Source: Escherichia coli
GTDB lineage: Bacteria; Pseudomonadota; Gammaproteobacteria; Enterobacterales; Enterobacteriaceae
Direction: 5' to 3' (one strand)
DNA length: 64,000 nt
Assembly: GCF_003991155.1 (NCBI RefSeq)
Contig: NZ_CP031293.1
The translations under genes were made by a program, and so were the position numbers. The notes under the pieces are model-generated. The model was not told the DNA's origin, made no database searches, and saw only the letters and a list, made by a program, of their open reading frames with translations. Position 1 is the first letter of the stretch. Every line of letters starts with the position of its first letter. This document shows, one piece after another, positions 819 through 9,285 of the stretch.

Positions 819-3800
819 CAGAGGATGCATTGATGCCTGAAGTAAATTGGAAAGTATTCAACGAACTGCCCGGTGCAGCAGATGTGAACTTCGAAAACCT
901 TTGCCGCGCTCTGGTACGCCGACACTATGGTCGTTTCGGTCGCTTTAAGCAACTCGCAAATCAGCCTGGGGTGGAGTTTCACCTCGAGCTGACGGAGCCT
1001 TGTGATCTCGGTGCGCCACCAGGTTGGATTGGTTGGCAATGCAAGTGGTATGAACTGGTGAATGGACAAGATTTGGGAGCCTCCCGCCGCAACAAGATCA
1101 TCGAAGGTATCGAAAAGACGCGTAAGCATGTCCCTGGAGTGACCAATTGGAAGCTTTGGACTCATCACACGTTAACAAAAGGTGATCAAGAGTGGTTTTT
1201 CGCGCTAGAGCAAGACCGCTTCCCAGAATTGAAGTTAGAACTGCTCACAGCTACGGATATCGAAGATCTTTTGGTCGGACCGGGAGCGCTTTTACGAGAA
1301 ACCTACTTTGGTGAACTGGTTCTAACTCCAGAGCTAATTGCTGAGCAGTATAAGCTTGCAGTGGCCCCATTTAAGAACCGCTACCAGCCAGATGTTCATG
1401 TAGCGGTGGGGGCTGAGGAGAATATATTCAGGCATCTGTGCAGCCAAAACGCATGGGAATCTCTGGAAGAACTCTCAAACGCTTTAAAAAAGAATCATAC
1501 GAGCATTGCTTCGGTTACTGAGCAACTCAAAACTGAGCTCAGGGCTGAAGTTGAATTACTCCTGGCCCGGGTTATTGGGTTGACTGAGTTTATTGATGGC
1601 TTACACGCGGCGCTCGGCAAAGGTGACTTTAACTCTGTATATCAAGCGTTGGTTTCAAATCCGCGTCAGCCGGTACGTTATGACAGGCTACTTTCGAAAT
1701 TGCGTGGAGCGCGCTTTGACGGGGCTCCGTTAACCGCTAATTTGGTTGCAGATATCCACGCGGTTTCGTCAGTTCTCCGCAGTCTGGAGCAATCGATTAG
1801 TGCTCGGGCGGTTGCTGTTCTTGCGGCGGCGGGGGAAGGTAAGTCTGAACTTGCAGTCAAGGTAACACAGCCAGAAGGGGCGTTCCTAGGGGGAATCCTC
1901 CTATTAGGCAAGAATCTTCATTCAGGCCAGGGGCTTGATGATCTCGTATCTGCCTTCAAGATTTCTGGGAGACCAGCAGAAAGTTTTGACCGCCTGATTG
2001 AGGCCGTAGATGCGGCAGGCCAGCGTGCAGGTAAACGCATACCTATTGTTATTGACGGTCTGAATGAGGCGGAAGATCCGAGAAATTGGAAGGATGAATT
2101 ATCCCGAGTGGATGAGCTTCTAAAGAATTTTCCTTATGTCTTGTTAGTTGTCACTCTTCGCAATGAATTCGCCCAGATGTGTCTGCCTGAGGGGTTTCCC
2201 CAAGTTGAACATAATGGGTTTCAGGAAGATCCGAAGACAGCATTTGACAAGTATTTTGAGTACTACAAGATCGATGCTACTGATGCGGATCTACCAGTCG
2301 AACTCTTGCAGCACCCCTTAACACTGAGAATTTTTTGCGAAGTAGCAAATTCTCCTCGTCAGCATATTGTCGGAGTGGAAGCATTGCCCCGTTCGCTTGC
2401 AAGCCTGTTCGAAGCTCACTTTAACAAGGTTGCAGCACGAGTCGCTGAGCTTTCACCGACGATGCATCGCATTTATCAAGATGACGTTCAGGATGCACTA
2501 CTAACGATCGCGGGTCTTCTTTGGGATAACAATGCGAGAAGTGTGGATTTTCAGGCTACACGGATGGCAGTTCGGGATATGGGGTGGGACGACAGTATTA
2601 TTCGTGCACTGGAGTCTGAAGGCATTCTCGTTCGGACTATTTCTCCAGAAGGTAGGCAAGGAGTTGCGTTTGCATACGACCTAATGGCCGGACATATGAT
2701 GGCGCGCAACCTGCTTATGAAGCCTGAACTGGTGCAATGGCTACAAAGCGATGAAGGGAACGCAAAATTTAAATCTCATGGACCTGATTCGCATACCTTC
2801 GCTTATGACGTATTACGGGCTCTGGTTGATCTGTATCCGCAACACTCTGGTAGGCGGCAGCTTTGGCAAGACTTGTCGGATGATATACTCGTTATGAACG
2901 CTCTGCTATTGACGACGCAATCGGATCCAAGATATATCGGGCGGGCTACTGTTGAACGATTTGCTCAAGCTATGCAGGAGTCGAAGCGGTTTGCACAACT
3001 TGCCTTCGAGAGACTACGGAGCACTAGGGCTGCGCTGGCACATCCGTTTGATATGAGCTTTTTGCATGATGTGCTAATGGCTATGTCCAACACTCAGCGC
3101 GATCTTTTTTGGTCAGAGTGGATTCGTCAGAAATCTGAACAAGTTAAAGACGACTTAAAATTCTTGTCGACGAGATGGAAATCGGGTCATCTGGATGAGC
3201 GTGAACTTCGAAGAGTTCGCTGGGTAATGTGGACACTGACGACGACATCCAGAGCTTTGCGGGATATGGCTACCAAAGCCCTGTATGAATTTGCCATCAG
3301 GCGGCCAGAAGAGTTTTTCCGGTTAGCGACGGAGACAATTGTAGTTTCAGACCCATATGTCCCCGAGCGAGTGTTCGCCGCAGCCTACGGTGCAGTCCTG
3401 ACCACTTGGTCGGATATCGATGCGGTAGAGTTACATGATGCGTTGCCACGGTTCGCTCGTGAGATTTACCAAACCATGTTTGCACCTGGCGCTACAGCCC
3501 CTACCTGGCATGCATTACATCAGCAGTACTGTTTGGGAATCATTGCCATTGCGAGGATGGTCGATCCAAATTGTTTTTCAGAGGACGAAGCTGTTTATCT
3601 TCTTCCGCCATTTAGCCATCTGCCTAACGTATTTGAAAGCATTCAACCGTACGATCCAGAGATGATTGGGCGAGCGGAGAGCGCAGCGATTCAAATGGAC
3701 TTTGGTAACTATACGATTGGTGGACTTATTCCAGACAGAGCGAACTACGATGACAGTAATCCGGAGTACCAACAGGTGTTGCAGGCCATTGTTTCTCGAA

Positions 3801-4891
3801 TGCTGATGCTTGGTTATGACCCTGAGCAGTTTGAAGCTGTTGATCGGCAAATGTACTCCGGTTCTCGTATGGGAGATGACAAGCACAAAATCGATCGATA
3901 TGGCAAAAAGTACGGCTGGATAGCTTACTTCGAGATGTGGGGGATACGATACGCGCAGGGCCTCCTTTCCGAAGAACGCAGTGCTCGCCCATCAGATGCT
4001 GATATCGATCCAACGTTTCCGCAAAAAGTAGAGAGTATTAGTTTGTCACTCCCAGTCTTATTTAACGATCCGTCTGTGGATGATGGTGACTGGATCGTGG
4101 GAGGCCCGCTACCTGACTACCGTAGCATCCTTGAGATTACGGAGGTTGATGGTCTGACGGGGCCATGGATCCTACTTGACGGTTTTGTTGAGCAAAATGC
4201 TACCTCGGATGACCGACAGATTTTCACTTTCCTGCGAGGAGTATTCGTAGATAGCCAAGAAGTTGACAATCTATGTAGGTTGTTCATTGATCTTGAATAT
4301 CCTGGCAATAGCGCCATCCCTGATGCTCCTGGCTACTATTACACCTATGCGGGTGAGATGCCTTTCCCGACTATTCCGGGGCTGCTAGTCGCTAATGAAC
4401 AAGAGGATGATAGCGATGAAAATTTGGTGTTCGCAGAAAGATGGTCAGGCAATGGCGTTGCGGTAGATATCACAGTGCAGGACTACAACTGGGAGAGCTA
4501 CCATAGCGTGGAGAACCAAAGCAGCGGTGCGAGCCTGCCCTCAAAGCAACTTTGTGAGGCTTTGAATCTCAGATACTGTGCAAACAAATGGGATTTGCAT
4601 GATGCTGCAGGTGTAGCGTCACTTTACCGCAAAATTGACGAAAATGGTTCGGACGTCAGTGGCTCTGTCAGCTATCTACGTCGTGATCTACTTGACCGCT
4701 ATTTGATGCAATCCGGTAAGGTATTGGTATGGCTTATGTGGGGAGAGCGTGGTTTTCATTACCGGTCCAACAAGACACGCAATTTGCACAGGTATTACGT
4801 GAATCACCAACATATTCACAAGCGTATTCATATCCATCAGATAGCTTCGAGTACTAGTAACCCAAATATTGCGGATGGAGTCGCTATATGA
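815..4891 (+). CDS. Large STAND/NACHT-like P-loop NTPase with an N-terminal Mrr/PD-(D/E)xK-like domain and a ~900-aa C-terminal region (Avs/bNACHT-like)
   Basis: The ORF is 1,358 aa (TTG at 815, or ATG at 833). Walker A is AAAGEGKS (aa 337-344, nt 1823-1846). Walker B is IVIDGLNE (aa 411-418, nt 2045-2068), followed by LLVVTLRNE. The N-terminus reads FENLCRALV..GVEFHLEL..GWQCKWY (aa 26-79), like Mrr-type nuclease cores. Confidence 0.8.
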   Translation: MTEDALMPEVNWKVFNELPGAADVNFENLCRALVRRHYGRFGRFKQLANQPGVEFHLELTEPCDLGAPPGWIGWQCKWYELVNGQDLGASRRNKIIEGIEKTRKHVPGVTNWKLWTHHTLTKGDQEWFFALEQDRFPELKLELLTATDIEDLLVGPGALLRETYFGELVLTPELIAEQYKLAVAPFKNRYQPDVHVAVGAEENIFRHLCSQNAWESLEELSNALKKNHTSIASVTEQLKTELRAEVELLLARVIGLTEFIDGLHAALGKGDFNSVYQALVSNPRQPVRYDRLLSKLRGARFDGAPLTANLVADIHAVSSVLRSLEQSISARAVAVLAAAGEGKSELAVKVTQPEGAFLGGILLLGKNLHSGQGLDDLVSAFKISGRPAESFDRLIEAVDAAGQRAGKRIPIVIDGLNEAEDPRNWKDELSRVDELLKNFPYVLLVVTLRNEFAQMCLPEGFPQVEHNGFQEDPKTAFDKYFEYYKIDATDADLPVELLQHPLTLRIFCEVANSPRQHIVGVEALPRSLASLFEAHFNKVAARVAELSPTMHRIYQDDVQDALLTIAGLLWDNNARSVDFQATRMAVRDMGWDDSIIRALESEGILVRTISPEGRQGVAFAYDLMAGHMMARNLLMKPELVQWLQSDEGNAKFKSHGPDSHTFAYDVLRALVDLYPQHSGRRQLWQDLSDDILVMNALLLTTQSDPRYIGRATVERFAQAMQESKRFAQLAFERLRSTRAALAHPFDMSFLHDVLMAMSNTQRDLFWSEWIRQKSEQVKDDLKFLSTRWKSGHLDERELRRVRWVMWTLTTTSRALRDMATKALYEFAIRRPEEFFRLATETIVVSDPYVPERVFAAAYGAVLTTWSDIDAVELHDALPRFAREIYQTMFAPGATAPTWHALHQQYCLGIIAIARMVDPNCFSEDEAVYLLPPFSHLPNVFESIQPYDPEMIGRAESAAIQMDFGNYTIGGLIPDRANYDDSNPEYQQVLQAIVSRMLMLGYDPEQFEAVDRQMYSGSRMGDDKHKIDRYGKKYGWIAYFEMWGIRYAQGLLSEERSARPSDADIDPTFPQKVESISLSLPVLFNDPSVDDGDWIVGGPLPDYRSILEITEVDGLTGPWILLDGFVEQNATSDDRQIFTFLRGVFVDSQEVDNLCRLFIDLEYPGNSAIPDAPGYYYTYAGEMPFPTIPGLLVANEQEDDSDENLVFAERWSGNGVAVDITVQDYNWESYHSVENQSSGASLPSKQLCEALNLRYCANKWDLHDAAGVASLYRKIDENGSDVSGSVSYLRRDLLDRYLMQSGKVLVWLMWGERGFHYRSNKTRNLHRYYVNHQHIHKRIHIHQIASSTSNPNIADGVAI

Positions 4892-5052: not shown

Positions 5053-6264
5053 AACCTTATGAAGGGGCGTCGTTTAGTATACTGATGGCTATTATGAAGT
5101 GTGAGTGGTTGTCTAAAGATAAGCTAGCCCTCACACGCTGTATCAAGCGACCTCTTGTTAGCTTACTCCAGCTAGCAAGAGTAAACTTTCCCCACTCATA
5201 GGGCTATGTTTGAAGTCCGAGTCGGAAATTGGGGGGCAGAAGACATAAAAGGTCTCCTTAAGAAGTCTTCTTGTCTGTACAAAAACTCTTATTTTGACAA
5301 AGAGCATTGTAGTTATTAACAGGCTGATTAATAAATTTAAAAATAAGTCGTCAGGAACACCAGATTAGCTACCCAAATTCTCATGCCGTGGAAGCGGAAG
5401 AAAAATACTCCCCTGAATATCTTCATATCGGATATACATAATAAGCTTGAGGTTGTATATTTGAAGAATTGAGTAGCCAGAGCCTTGTTGACATAAAGCG
5501 ACACGAACAACATGTTACTTAAAATATCACGAGTATATATTCAGACTTGTTTATGTTGCGACATGGATTCTACAGGCAGCTGGCTGAAACAGTGAGTCAG
5601 AAAAATTTACAGGAGCGCCATAGTCATTAATGGATATCCGTAATATGCTGATGCAAAAGGGTAAGGAGTTTGCCGGTAATCTGCGGTGTTAGACGACAAT
5701 TACAAAACGACCTTAGGCGTCAATTACCGCTGAAAAAAGTGACAGATCACTTTCTATAAAATGCTGCCGTATGACCGACAGATTTATTCCGCTTTATAGC
5801 CATGACTGTTCGGTGCTCACTTCGCTGCGCTCCGCCTCAGTCCTGCCTAAAAAGCGTTGCAGGTTAGTTTGTATCGGCCTAATGAAAGGCTGTTTTAGCG
5901 AAGCGTAAATGTGACATCTTATCTGGTCTAATCTCTTTGCGATAATTGACGCAAAAGCATGGGCTGTAATTGTCACGCAATACTGCGGCAAGTCTCATGA
6001 TGATGCCTCTGACAGGGATCTCCGTAGCCATTAACTGGTCGATTGGTAAGCTAAAACAAAAAAATTGAATTTGTCAAGACAGCCATAATGACTACCATTT
6101 TCGTCTCTGCTTTTCCATCCTGAAATTAATGGCTATCATATTCGCAATAGACAACATCATCTTACTTGCACTCAACTATAACTAATGCTGAGTGCAAGAA
6201 ACGGGGATTATATCCCCTATCAAGGACCTGTTGAAATATTAGTCTGGAATTTCGAGGCTGTAAT

Positions 6265-6789
6265 TTAAATTGCTCCATTTGCCTTAGCATCAAGAATGAA
6301 TTTTTCATACTCGCGTTCTGCAACAACAACAGGGACTGTTTTGCGATTATATAATTGCATTAATAACAATGTACGATGCCTTCCATCAGAAACACCAAAT
6401 TCACTGTTAGATGCCTCTGGATATTCAACATACCCTTTTGATATATATTTTTTGATTTTATGCCATCTACGCGGATCAATGCAGAATGCTCCATCTCCTA
6501 ATTTTTTAAGAAAGGCTAGCCCATCGACATATACAATCCTGGTAGGACAATGCCGATAGCGTACAGGAAGGGTAAAGATAATATTTTCAAAAACAGGGAA
6601 AGTAAGACCTGAATCATCTTTAGGTATTGACTCAAAGGAATCAAAAGGATATTTTGTCATGTAATCATTTAGTTTTTCAATATCCATATTGGAAAACCAC
6701 GATACTTCCGGGAGAAATTTTTTATCTCTTTCTCTAATTTCTTTGATCGAATCTCCAAATATATCATCTAACCTCCACCCCTCTTTCAT
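6265..6789 (-). CDS. Hypothetical protein with ParB/Srx-like DGRHR motif
   Basis: The ORF is 174 aa and AT-rich, with a GGAG-type RBS. The motif VSDGRHRTLLL near the C-terminus resembles the ParB/sulfiredoxin-fold signature. It is the last gene of the rhs cassette string. Confidence 0.6.
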   Translation of the reverse strand: MKEGWRLDDIFGDSIKEIRERDKKFLPEVSWFSNMDIEKLNDYMTKYPFDSFESIPKDDSGLTFPVFENIIFTLPVRYRHCPTRIVYVDGLAFLKKLGDGAFCIDPRRWHKIKKYISKGYVEYPEASNSEFGVSDGRHRTLLLMQLYNRKTVPVVVAEREYEKFILDAKANGAI

Positions 6790-6833
6790 TTATGCTCCTA
6801 AAATAATGTGATATTAAAAATTCTGTTAATAAG

Positions 6834-7349
6834 TCAAATTTTATGAATACTAATAAGGGGTTTGCACCACTCAACCGAGAGAATATCTTCCATTTTATAA
6901 AAAACGCCATAATCACTTTGATTATAATGCTCAATTTTATCAGCCATTTGTAATCTAATTTTGTCTTTGTAAATTCTACTTCGGATCAAACTGGCGAAAT
7001 TATATATATCAACCCTCAGATTGATAATATTATTTCTATCTGGGCGTCTTTCATGTAACATATCACGAAAAGAAACAAGTAACGTAATTAATTTTTTAGC
7101 CTCATTATTTTTAATATATCCTTTTTTAAAGATGCATAATATTAATTTTGAAATTAAGCTGATTTTTATTTGTAAATTATAGATAGCATTATCGTTTGTC
7201 AGGCAGGTTATGACTTCAATTACTTCACGTGAGCGAATATAATTGTCCAGTGCTTCCCATTCATCCATTCCTCGATGCATTGAAAGTTCCAATTGCCTTA
7301 AAAAAGCATATAACCCCAATAAGAAGTCGCTATTGCAGTATATTTTCAT
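6834..7349 (-). CDS. Putative immunity protein for the orphan Rhs C-terminal toxin 2
   Basis: The ORF is 171 aa. Its ATG overlaps the toxin stop (ATGA, 7346-7349). It is very AT-rich, which is typical for an rhs-CT/immunity pair. Confidence 0.6.
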   Translation of the reverse strand: MKIYCNSDFLLGLYAFLRQLELSMHRGMDEWEALDNYIRSREVIEVITCLTNDNAIYNLQIKISLISKLILCIFKKGYIKNNEAKKLITLLVSFRDMLHERRPDRNNIINLRVDIYNFASLIRSRIYKDKIRLQMADKIEHYNQSDYGVFYKMEDILSVEWCKPLISIHKI

Positions 7350-8737
7350 GAATCACATCCTTTAATAAAACTCATTATTCGTGACCAAAAAGAGTCTTTT
7401 TTGTATATAGGGTTTTTATCGTTTAATGGTAAAGGATCGTCTGTTGGTATAACGGCTGTATTTCTTGGCCCAACATTTGTTTTAGTAAGTGAATCTTTGG
7501 AAGCATCAAACTCTACATAAGAACCATTCTTCCATGCCCCTGTTTCTGCACCTGCCGTTTTAGGATCTCCAAATGGCTCCACCTCAACGTGTACACCAAC
7601 AGGATTGCCTCTGGCAGGGTTGATAGACCCATCCTTGCTAATTCCATCAATACCCTCTGTTGAAGTATGATGTCTAACTCTAACAGTATCGTCACCAGTT
7701 AACCCTAACGGATCAATAATTTTTAGCGGATTAAATACATATCCATACAGGCAATCCCCACCTCTCAGCCCCATCGGATCAGCACACAGATACTGCCCCG
7801 TATCGCAATCATAATACCTGAATCGGTTATAGTACAGGCCTGACTCAACATCCTCGTACTGCCCCGGAAAACGTAACCGGCATGTGGGCGCATCTTCTTT
7901 ACTGATGCCTTCCTCACGCCCCCAGAGCTGCTGCTTGCCTTTCCAGACTATCAGACCCTCTTCGGTCAGCAGTTCTTGTACGCGGCCAGTTGTGTCTGTT
8001 ACCGCATAATGCAGTTGCCCCTTTTCATAACGCGCAAACGGCGTGAAATCTCCCGGCTCGTATATCCAGCGGATGGCGTTTTCATCTTCCGGTTTGCCGT
8101 CAGCGCCAACCGGAATTTCCGCCGTCAACTGGTCGCCGTTCCAGTGAAAATCCATGCCGCGTTTGTCGCGGCTGGTACAGCGCTTGCTGATGCGCCTGCC
8201 GAACGGGTCATACTTATATTCCCAGCGTTCGCCCTCCGGTGTTTCCAGTCCGGTCAACTGGCTGCGTGCATCCCATTTATAACGCCATTCCAGTGGGCGA
8301 TAACCCCCTTTATCCACCAGTTTCTGTACCAGCCTGCCGTTAACATCATATTTCCAGGTGATGTTGTGCGCATTCACCACCCGGACAAATCTCCCGTCTT
8401 CCCCTTTTCCGGTGTCCGGGTTGATGCGATGCGTCGAGTGCCGCCAGCCTTCATGTTCCCGCGATACCACACGACCATGCTGCTGTTGCTGGTGCGTCTC
8501 GCTTTCCAGTACGTTATTCACCCTGATCTGGCGACGGGTAATGTTCAGGTTTTTATCGTAAGTGAACAGCTCCTCGCACAGCGGAAACTGGCTGGAATCA
8601 CCCGTCCAGGTGGCGTGGCTTATCTGGTCGTTTGCCGTGATGGTGTTGAACATGGAGCCGCGCAGCGAGTCGGCGATTGCGGTGAGGTTATACGCTTTGT
8701 CGTAGCTTCGCTGCGTCGGGAGGTTTCCATGCCGCAC
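7346..8737 (-). CDS. Orphan Rhs core fragment (YD repeats) fused to a ~116-aa C-terminal toxin domain
   Basis: YD-repeat text is present (YDKAYNLTAIAD, WRYKWDARSQLTGLETPEGERWEYKYDPFGRR). The core-end motif is RFRYYDCDTGQYLCADPMGLRGG...NPLKIIDPLGL, followed by a unique tail. Rhs-like sequence continues upstream (8738-8848) in a different frame with no start codon, so the cassette is 5'-truncated and frameshifted. Confidence 0.8.
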   Translation of the reverse strand: MRHGNLPTQRSYDKAYNLTAIADSLRGSMFNTITANDQISHATWTGDSSQFPLCEELFTYDKNLNITRRQIRVNNVLESETHQQQQHGRVVSREHEGWRHSTHRINPDTGKGEDGRFVRVVNAHNITWKYDVNGRLVQKLVDKGGYRPLEWRYKWDARSQLTGLETPEGERWEYKYDPFGRRISKRCTSRDKRGMDFHWNGDQLTAEIPVGADGKPEDENAIRWIYEPGDFTPFARYEKGQLHYAVTDTTGRVQELLTEEGLIVWKGKQQLWGREEGISKEDAPTCRLRFPGQYEDVESGLYYNRFRYYDCDTGQYLCADPMGLRGGDCLYGYVFNPLKIIDPLGLTGDDTVRVRHHTSTEGIDGISKDGSINPARGNPVGVHVEVEPFGDPKTAGAETGAWKNGSYVEFDASKDSLTKTNVGPRNTAVIPTDDPLPLNDKNPIYKKDSFWSRIMSFIKGCDS

Positions 8738-8850
8738 AGGTCGTGCTCAAATGTCAGCGGGGCATGGTCCGCTATTCGCCATGACGTAAGATGCCCCATC
8801 AGGTCGCGGGTGAAGCGTTCTGTGATACCCTCAGCCTGTAATTTTACAGG

Positions 8851-9285
8851 TTAAATGGGGAATTTTTCTTCAATGAGCTTCAAGCCAAGTAATGCCATAT
8901 CATGAATATCTTCATCATGCGATTGAGCCGAAATTTTCAACCCGTTTACCATTCTTTTATCTGGGAAAGACATTGTTAATATAGTACACCAAAGCCTAAC
9001 GCTTTTTATTGTGTTAGGATTTTCGAGTATGTTAACGATATTTATAACAACATCATTAAAATCACACTTATAGAGAAAATCCTCAACAATTTGATATACT
9101 CCAAGACCATCACCCTCACCAAAAGATCGCAAAAATAAAGGTATTGCATCTTTATCGGGATGGGAAAGAAAGTAAATTCGTACCTCATCGTATTTATCTA
9201 TAAGATCCTGAGTAATATCACAATCCGCGGGCATTGGTTGATGTAGTGACAGGAACTCTAATGCTTCTTTTTTATTCATATTCAT
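8851..9285 (-). CDS. Putative immunity protein for Rhs C-terminal toxin 1
   Basis: The ORF starts at MNMNKKEAL, and its ATG overlaps the toxin TGA (ATGA, 9282-9285). It is AT-rich, ~144 aa, and lies immediately downstream of the toxin. Confidence 0.6.
   Translation of the reverse strand: MNMNKKEALEFLSLHQPMPADCDITQDLIDKYDEVRIYFLSHPDKDAIPLFLRSFGEGDGLGVYQIVEDFLYKCDFNDVVINIVNILENPNTIKSVRLWCTILTMSFPDKRMVNGLKISAQSHDEDIHDMALLGLKLIEEKFPI

Follow-up and report, generated by a model that had tools for sequence, protein, structure and literature searches.

Toxin/immunity systems of the rearrangement hotspot (Rhs) kind are already well known, and the locus described here raises the question of what a detached piece of such a system encodes and what it could still do for the bacterium that carries it. 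The piece is a cassette in a 64,000-nucleotide stretch of an Escherichia coli chromosome (contig NZ_CP031293.1 of assembly GCF_003991155.1; the whole stretch is called the window); it spans positions 8848-7346 on the minus strand, its core begins right after the stop codon of an upstream immunity gene, and it ends in a C-terminal tail whose family is uncurated. We conclude that the cassette and the gene behind it are probably an orphan rhs-CT/rhsI module, consisting of a toxin with an ADP-ribosyltransferase (ART) fold and its cognate immunity protein, within a degraded type VI secretion system (T6SS) effector island at a tRNA-Asn gene. All features are listed in Table 1.

A preliminary description, made from the sequence alone, had proposed that a truncated Rhs core is joined here to a C-terminal tail. 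This was borne out by the 463-amino-acid (aa) open reading frame (ORF) at 7346-8737 (minus strand), which matched the Pfam families RHS_repeat (E 2.3e-10) and RHS (E 1.9e-6) and the NCBIfam models RHS_core (E 1.2e-28), Rhs_assc_core (E 1.5e-19, residues 272-346) and YD_repeat (E 8.7e-10). The core terminates in ...CADPMGLRGGDCLYGYVFNPLKIIDPLGL at nucleotide 7700, where CADPMGL...NPLKIIDPLGL forms the autocleavage and demarcation motif; NPLKIIDPLGL, which had been read as a PxxxxDPxGL-type boundary, is present and the tail follows it directly. With YD repeats and a core closing in PxxxxDPxGL, the product has the features of a Rhs/YD-repeat toxin. It is not a full-length Rhs: it has neither the PAAR/trafficking domain at the N-terminus nor a complete shell, and its RHS_core score of 99.6 bits lies below the cut-off of 2000. 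Core homology runs from about residue 937 of an intact 1464-aa Rhs onward, directly after the preceding immunity stop codon, and the PAAR domain and the N-terminal part are absent, so the earlier designation as an orphan cassette was upheld. GC makes up 55-59% of the core, ~40-46% of the tail and 23-31% of the immunity gene, a drop that is the classic discontinuity between Rhs core and tip.

The first stretch of the core, AEGITERFTRDLMGHLTSWRIADHAPLTFEHDL (the AEGITERF...FEHDL stretch), lies in a different frame from the rest. The preliminary description had attributed this to a frameshift; the change of frame is real, but it does not result from a point frameshift. A blastn alignment with the intact sister rhs gene of another E. 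coli island (L007) paired window 8829-8705 with L007 7855-7979 and window 8704-7753 with L007 8095-9049, both at ~87% identity, so that 115 bp are missing at 8704/8705 and the reading frame is shifted. This deletion removed ~38 core codons, and the lost peptide, GFYQTLAYTRTGMPTKQNAGDHQAGPYERNKSLERQW, is present in the intact Rhs. The related statement that there is no upstream start holds for the Rhs protein but not for the fragment, which has an in-frame GTG at 8737 that opens the 463-aa coding sequence annotated in RefSeq (WP_072652862.1).

A 5′-truncated core, a distinct tail, a linked immunity gene and a position 3′ of the main rhs gene, the features of an orphan rhs-CT/rhsI module, are all found here, with the main rhs represented by an IS3-cut 3′ end only; in sister strains an intact main rhs sits at the corresponding position. 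The orphan modules of Salmonella LT2 and E. coli (Poole 2011, PMC3150448; Koskiniemi 2014, PMC3967940; Starsta 2020, PMC7043789) likewise combine a 3′ core fragment with a distinct tail and an immunity gene of its own, lie downstream of a main rhs (a former one in the window), lack export and initiation signals and show the same compositional drop at the tail. The window cassette differs from them in that its partner main rhs has been lost to IS3 and in its internal 115-bp deletion. A known way of activating orphan cassettes is their recombination with an adjacent main rhs (PMC3967940); because the adjacent gene was deleted by IS3, this route is closed at this locus.

The tail, TGDDTVRVRHHTS...KGCDS, comprises 117 aa (nucleotides 7699-7349). 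It had been described as a unique tail of ~116 aa; the tail is real, but it is not globally unique, since tails with 58-90% identity occur in Citrobacter, in Proteus and on a metagenome contig. A word-indexed search with the tail found 18 relatives; when 1.84 billion representatives were searched with a profile, 188 clusters reached E≤1e-3 and 146 of these reached E≤1e-10. Among 114 full-coverage representatives, whose host proteins are up to 3268 aa long, only P0007 and P0061 have more than eight residues behind the domain (13 and 36, respectively); in all others the C-terminus is 0-8 residues away. Six of eight long members that were sampled contained RHS_repeat, DUF6531 or DUF6443 and the other two had no Pfam match, and numerous members are only 110-200 aa long. 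Viral contigs scanned for the toxin family yielded no relatives.

What kind of toxin is this? The preliminary description had noted a loose resemblance to the N-terminal signature of HYD1-type ART toxins, without a confident assignment, and proposed a Pfam search and a structure prediction. The window tail itself had no match in Pfam, even at E≤10, or in NCBIfam, and PADLOC returned noise only. When 62 relatives were scanned singly against Pfam (E≤10), Tox-ART-HYD1 (PF15633, gathering threshold 25 bits) was matched below threshold by eight of them, the best at 22.2 bits (P0007) and the next at 18.4 bits (P0003), in alignments that span profile positions ~1-77 and begin exactly at the VRH[HY]TS strand. 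TreTu_C (PF24691, gathering threshold 27 bits) was matched by four of the 62 at ~14 bits, confined to the YVEFD region. No other family was matched by more than one relative, and both are families of Rhs-borne ART toxins. The structure prediction gave an AlphaFold2 model of the tail with a predicted local distance difference test (pLDDT) value of 77.5 (core >90), and the top four Foldseek matches of this model in the PDB were all TreTu (7ZHM/7ZHL; probability 0.99-1.0, TM ~0.5), followed by tRNA 2′-phosphotransferase, CC0527 and the ART-like domain of CNFy. The model has the split beta-sheet of an ART, and the fold of the tail is thus predicted to be that of an ART, with TreTu as the best structural match. 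The resemblance to HYD1-type toxins was a good lead, although the tail is not a member of PF15633: it fails the gathering thresholds of both PF15633 and PF24691, and the toxin family is a sub-threshold sister of the two that belongs to neither by their thresholds. Other candidates were discarded as chance matches, namely Phage_cement_2 (E 0.05) and P-mevalo_kinase (E 0.07) in the Pfam, NCBIfam and PADLOC scans of the tail, the immunity protein and the neighboring ORF174, and 3k17 (Lin0012, E 0.14) in the PDB profile search of the tail.

Several observations weigh against reading the tail as a TreTu-like ART. Sequence similarity to TreTu is not significant, as the PDB search with the toxin profile gave a match of 21 residues at E 0.55-1.2, in which the motif YVEFDvPe..Lv.TN.G is shared. 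Because this similarity is insignificant and the tail has no Pfam match of its own, the assignment rests on the predicted structure (pLDDT 77.5, TM ~0.5) and on the sub-threshold matches of the relatives. The catalytic strand-2 His of TreTu corresponds to His in 53% and Asp in 42% of the toxin family, and the equivalent of TreTu E12 is not conserved; with both positions variable, the active-site constellation differs from that of TreTu. Finally, the immunity protein has a fold unlike the beta-sheet lid of TriTu and does not match Imm-My6CBD.

We therefore examined which residues the family conserves. The active sites of the two characterized relatives comprise R6, E12, S25, H31, F41 and W68 in TreTu (PMC9825190) and H8, Y9 and Y33 in Tre23 (PMC8661411). 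Conservation was calculated over 118 toxin-family domains, numbered such that L1 is the final Leu of DPLGL (ORF residue 346; Table 1), and the window tail retains every position conserved at 90% or more (R10, H11, T13, I21, I27, G36, V37, V39, E40, P43, F44, G55, E64, F65 and I85). Compared at the level of sequence with the TreTu site (an R-H-h set of R6, H31 and W68, with E12, S25 and F41), R10/H11, H38 and F44 of the window are plausible equivalents, but H38 is conserved in only 53% and the E12 equivalent varies. The signature of Tox-ART-HYD1, as reportedly given by Zhang in 2012, is H, [RK], [FY], [DE]; in a comparison likewise made by sequence, the strand-2 position of the toxin family is H or D, not Y, and the acidic residues E40 and E64 are conserved. 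Candidate residues for NAD+ binding and transfer are R10, H11, E40, F44 and E64. As judged from these alignments, the active site of TreTu or Tre23 cannot be copied onto the toxin family, in which E40 and E64 are among the most conserved residues.

The two relatives nevertheless define the comparison. TreTu/TriTu, encoded by the main Rhs of S. Typhimurium (7ZHL/7ZHM; PF24691), is likewise a Rhs C-terminal domain of ~110 aa that follows DPxGL and has its immunity gene directly downstream, and it shares the YVEFD.P..L..TN.G motif, a strand-1 Arg, a strand-2 His, a Phe in the next loop and a C-terminal helix. It differs in that the similarity is sub-significant (14 bits against the 27 of PF24691), that E12 and S25 have no conserved equivalents, that the strand-2 His is Asp in 42% of the toxin family, and that the invariant E40 and E64 are peculiar to the latter; moreover, TriTu is a small beta-sheet lid (PMC9825190) whereas the window immunity is a helical protein of 171 aa. 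The target of TreTu is D21 of EF-Tu. Tre23/Tri23 of Photorhabdus laumondii (Plu0353; PF15633) is also a Rhs-borne ART toxin, in which H8-Y9 correspond to ..VRH[HY]T.. of the toxin family in an N-terminal strand that falls on the first 25 positions of PF15633, and close relatives of the window tail reach 18-22 bits against that model. In this case the differences are that the window tail has no PF15633 match and its best relative stays below 25 bits, that Y33 of strand 2 is replaced by His or Asp, that no immunity of the Imm-My6CBD type accompanies the tail, and that Tre23 targets helix 44 of 23S rRNA. Both TreTu and Tre23 inhibit translation in an NAD+-dependent manner, and both have immunities that bind the toxin and do not reverse the modification (PMC9825190, PMC8661411), as is the case for Tri23 (PMC8661411).

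One alternative explanation for the predicted fold is that the tail is an ART-fold NAD+ glycohydrolase like Tne2 or Tse6, which would deplete NAD(P)+ rather than modify a macromolecule. The domain is very small (~100 aa), and the invariant E40 together with E64 could act in hydrolysis. However, the best structural match and the sole sequence hints are transferases (TreTu, Tox-ART-HYD1), identity to Tne2 is 6%, and no Pfam NADase family was matched. We consider a glycohydrolase quite improbable and retain the ART-fold transferase as the preferred reading.

Behind the tail, a 171-aa ORF starts at an ATG that shares the sequence ATGA with the toxin stop codon (TGA, 7348-7346), confirming an overlap noted earlier. 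A single-sequence search found five relatives of the 171-aa protein and a profile search 20 clusters, those with a source name being "hypothetical protein"; neither the protein nor its family relatives had a Pfam match, and no NCBIfam or PADLOC model matched the 171-aa protein. In at least 14 independent loci, belonging to Enterobacterales, Alcaligenaceae, Acidobacteriota and Gemmataceae, the next gene after the toxin encodes a homologue. Such homologues were found in Proteus mirabilis (36% identity, E 3e-33), in Salmonella serovar Carno and Citrobacter werkmanii, on metagenome contigs L003, L011, L012 and L013, and in six loci of metagenome-assembled genomes (Alcaligenaceae, Gammaproteobacteria, Acidobacteriota and Gemmataceae). 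In one exception (L017) a different small ORF follows the toxin, and two further loci end at a contig edge. Because a homologue directly follows the toxin across genera and phyla, the 171-aa protein is very probably the cognate immunity protein, which strongly supports the assignment proposed at the outset. The suggestion that the pair is uncharacterized also appears correct, given that no Pfam, NCBIfam or PADLOC model covers it; we found no paper mentioning the RefSeq accessions of the pair.

The predicted model of the immunity protein is all-alpha and had no hydrolase-like structural match. With an all-alpha model and no Pfam match, it shows neither the Imm-My6CBD association nor a beta-lid of the TriTu type. 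By analogy, this helical protein would most likely neutralize the toxin through 1:1 binding and occlusion of the active site, and not through removal of the modification.

Pairs of a toxin (117-195 aa) and an immunity homologue were also observed outside Rhs genes (L011 5001-5953, L012 1054-2050 and L013 5001-6084); one contig carries a MobA/MobL relaxase and one pair lies beside two integrases and a primase. These free-standing pairs look like toxin-antitoxin-type modules on mobile elements.

A further possibility, which we regard as tentative, is that the pair constitutes a distinct, phylum-spanning ART toxin/immunity family in which the R-H of strand 1, the invariant Glu in GV[H/D]VE and the second Glu in YVEF fit no described ART triad. 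The target might then differ from EF-Tu and 23S rRNA, and the pair might be employed in two ways, as a warhead of Rhs/T6SS effectors and, on mobile elements, as a free-standing module of the toxin-antitoxin kind.

We next considered where the tail occurs and whether a deployable version exists. Of 5426 complete E. coli genomes, 23 contain the tail and the immunity gene, which always sit at the same locus and in the orphan form; they are 100% identical in 22 of these genomes, one immunity gene being 99.8% identical. The surrounding region, 6200-9900, is 100% identical in 19 complete genomes and at least 99.9% identical in 21, and the core subtype is rare (44 genomes). The proposed comparison with full-length rhs genes carrying the same tail found none among the 5426 E. 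coli genomes, but it did reveal a counterpart in C. werkmanii (CP019986.1; L027), where the order vgrG, DUF2169, PAAR-like Rhs (1487 aa) with its C-terminal toxin, and immunity gene is found. The C-terminus of this Rhs is a member of the toxin family with 58% identity (E 5e-48), and its immunity protein is 35% identical to that of the window. The operon shares with the window locus the toxin and immunity families and the stop/start overlap and, like the sister E. coli islands, is of the DUF2169-Rhs type; it differs in being full-length, vgrG-associated and presumably deliverable. The gene order thus points to the natural delivery context, which would be loading onto the T6SS spike via the DUF2169 adaptor. 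Downstream of this effector (L027 8676-10163), we observed an orphan Rhs fragment whose ART tail is Scabin/pertussis-S1-like; a Tox-HNH-EHHH fragment comes next. Two unrelated ART toxins thus stand in one Citrobacter array.

Taken together, these comparisons suggest how the module would act as an orphan rhs-CT/rhsI toxin/immunity pair. The 117-aa tail would be a small, cytoplasm-acting ART-fold toxin whose family is uncurated and a sister to TreTu_C and Tox-ART-HYD1. NAD+ would be bound in a cleft formed by strand 1 (R-H-[H/Y]-T), strand 2 (GV[H/D]VE, PF) and the YVEF strand, and ADP-ribose would be transferred to an essential target, possibly a component of the translation machinery by analogy with the two characterized relatives. 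In the deployable form seen in C. werkmanii, the domain terminates a PAAR-like Rhs whose gene follows vgrG and DUF2169; it would be released at the DPxGL aspartyl autocleavage site and be delivered by the T6SS. Because the N-terminal two thirds of the Rhs are absent, 115 bp of the core are deleted and the main rhs has been lost to IS3, the toxin is undeliverable from this locus. The locus would still offer immunity against neighbors firing this toxin family, and it may allow low-level internal expression of toxin and antitoxin and provide a reservoir for recombination.

Another explanation is that the cassette is an internally expressed module resembling a type II toxin-antitoxin system, with an internal start, a core-borne transcript and the 171-aa protein as antitoxin, which would affect host growth or stress rather than competitors. 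In Salmonella, main and orphan rhs-CT/rhsI genes are transcribed from promoters within the conserved core, ~89 nt upstream of the sequence coding for PxxxxDPxGL, and a toxic rhs-CT product is made from a non-ATG start (PMC7043789). The window retains the corresponding core segment (7753-8704) and an intact 463-aa GTG ORF, although the GTG is preceded only by a weak GAG, 8 nt upstream. A promoter and terminator scan gave no excess over shuffled sequences and listed no site in the matching core stretch of the cassette; it speaks neither for nor against internal expression as in Salmonella, which is possible by analogy. The many free-standing members of 110-200 aa with an immunity homologue, one on a MobA-bearing contig and one beside integrases, would fit such a module. 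So would strong purifying selection on the toxin: relative to the independent orphan copy of metagenome contig L003 (90% aa and 86% nucleotide identity), the window tail has a ratio of nonsynonymous to synonymous divergence (dN/dS) of 0.07 with dS 0.72, which indicates that the toxin has been under purifying selection, but this selection could stem from an earlier full-length Rhs stage. A role as an internal toxin-antitoxin-like module seems rather unlikely to us. That the cassette is silent, as had been stated, is plausible; it stays only plausible because of the GTG ORF and the core promoters of Salmonella orphans.

Alternatively, the cassette could be a decaying pseudogene remnant without present function, in which toxin and immunity gene hitch-hike in an IS-eroded island. 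The 5′ truncation, the 115-bp deletion and the IS3-caused loss of both main rhs and DUF2169 are what such decay would produce, and in 2 of the 23 genomes a further IS3-associated deletion has removed the core beyond ~8511 up to the integrase (the 980-2 locus was inspected; UID2309220003 was assigned from the same truncated match only). The 23 copies, identical except for one immunity gene (99.8%), carry no information on selection. Against this explanation, the tail and immunity ORFs are intact and keep all family-invariant residues, and both survive even in the two further-deleted genomes. In addition, the toxin-less sister islands retain the immunity gene. In these islands (L004-L009), an intact main PAAR-Rhs carries a different tail and a 181-aa immunity (e.g. 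L007 9454-10516), the toxin is absent, and homology to the window begins exactly at the immunity ATG, continuing through a homologue of the 171-aa protein (91% aa identity, dN/dS 0.28) and ORF174. The 171-aa gene of L004-L009 is thus an orphan immunity gene, and its being kept without the toxin suggests that immunity is useful by itself. We regard a functionless remnant as unlikely and continue to favor an orphan module whose immunity gene could still act.

Table 1. Features of the cassette and its surroundings in window coordinates, and conserved positions of the tail over the 118 toxin-family domains (tail numbering).
Feature	Position	Strand	Basis or conservation
Truncated DUF2169 (T6SS adaptor), N-terminal leftover of former effector operon	11017..11352	-	RefSeq: 111 aa
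IS3-family transposase gene	9836..11013	+	RefSeq annotation
Cassette 1, IS3-cut former main rhs: last ~58 core codons and a different tail	9282..9812	-	Rhs_assc_core 6.5e-15, residues 13-58
Cassette 1 immunity-like gene, 150 aa	8851..9303	-	ORF; RefSeq hypothetical protein
Rhs core 5′ end, frame A (AEGITERF...RRSEA)	8705..8848	-	Translation; blastn 87% identity to L007
115-bp deletion junction	8704..8705		L007 7980-8094 without counterpart
Rhs core part of 463-aa ORF, residues 1-346, GTG start 8737	7700..8737	-	Pfam, NCBIfam, RefSeq WP_072652862.1
C-terminal toxin domain, residues 347-463 and stop codon	7346..7699	-	Predicted ART fold; motifs RVRHHT, GVHVEVEPFG, YVEFD, GPRNTAVIP
Immunity gene, 171 aa, predicted all-alpha, small unannotated family	6834..7349	-	ATG overlaps toxin stop
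ORF174, 174 aa	6265..6789	-	Follows immunity gene in E. coli islands L004-L009
Tail residue	R10		97%
Tail residue	H11		97%
Tail residue	12		H 80%, Y/F 19%; H in window
Tail residue	T13		95%
Tail residue	I21		99%
Tail residues	G36 and V37		97% each
Tail residue	38		H 53%, D 42%
Tail residue	V39		93%
Tail residue	E40		100%
Tail residue	P43		98%
Tail residue	F44		99%
Tail residue	G55		95%
Tail residue	E64		96%
Tail residue	F65		96%
Tail residue	I85		92%

The island in which the cassette lies is bounded by yeeN/amn on one side and by a tRNA-Asn gene beside yeeO on the other. On the minus strand it contains, in order, a truncated DUF2169 gene, IS3, the 3′ remnant of rhs with its tail (cassette 1), a small gene, the cassette under study, the 171-aa gene and the 174-aa gene. 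Compared with the sister islands, which have an intact 393-aa DUF2169 and a 1464-aa PAAR-Rhs at this position, the IS3 element stands in for ~5 kb, from about codon 112 of DUF2169 to a point close to where the main rhs core ends; the intact DUF2169 protein has 396 aa in Citrobacter, against 393 aa in L004-L009. The transposase protein of this IS3 (WP_152895938.1) also flanks the larger deletion in strain 980-2.

Cassette 1 is annotated in RefSeq as a pseudogene "missing N-terminus". Its tail, LLAGPGEDLYVGTYGSS...HTPHHAIQD..., has a sequence distinct from that of the tail under study and gave nothing in Pfam, in NCBIfam or in a quick PDB sequence search, and the adjoining immunity-like gene had no Pfam or NCBIfam family match; tail and 150-aa gene are a further uncharacterized pair of toxin and putative immunity. 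In E. coli islands ORF174 invariably comes next after the immunity gene, but it is absent from this place in L003, L010 and L027 and is no part of the pair in other taxa. It had no Pfam, NCBIfam or PADLOC match and nothing meaningful in a quick PDB sequence search; it contains a DGRHR-like motif (VSDGRHRTLLL), reminiscent of ParB/sulfiredoxin-type domains.

Other genes of the window were noted in passing. At 11600-17350 there are an ash-family gene, a helix-turn-helix gene, a gene for a HigA-type antitoxin without an annotated HigB partner and an integrase-domain gene; beside the tRNA-Asn gene at ~17266-17341 lies a tyrosine recombinase pseudogene interrupted by an internal stop codon. A 1352-aa "hypothetical protein" at 833-4891 (plus strand) is an antiviral STAND NTPase of the Avs2 type (PADLOC Avs2, E 7.5e-116); radical S-adenosylmethionine (SAM) and DUF6375 genes lie upstream of it (1-818) in the same orientation, and this trio, which is also present in the sister islands, may be a defense cluster. 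A second island at another tRNA-Asn gene (L024, NZ_CP127324.1 1361777-1380687), ~45 kb beyond the window start, has decayed in the same way: of Rhs it contains only fragments, broken by IS3 and ISAs1, among them a 510-aa Rhs-core protein whose core is ~90% identical, together with an immunity gene of the Imm11 family.

What is new at this locus is an uncurated family with a predicted ART fold beside TreTu and Tox-ART-HYD1, an immunity family co-inherited with it, a full-length counterpart in Citrobacter, the 115-bp deletion and the loss of the delivery gene to IS3. The toxin family is small (~100 aa), strongly conserved and outside curated models, and it has a dedicated, equally unannotated immunity family. 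Rhs-borne ART toxins have revealed growth-blocking targets that include FtsZ, EF-Tu D21, 23S rRNA helix 44, structured RNAs and tRNA-Thr. Identifying the target of the present family would extend this list and yield a new pair of Pfam-type families, and the deliverable Citrobacter version is an experimental opportunity for doing so. For the E. coli lineage, the locus is a record of the decay of an effector island, in which the delivery gene was lost to IS3 while the toxin tail and its immunity gene persist, and the sister strains that carry the immunity gene only fit the idea that orphan immunity genes are kept as protection.

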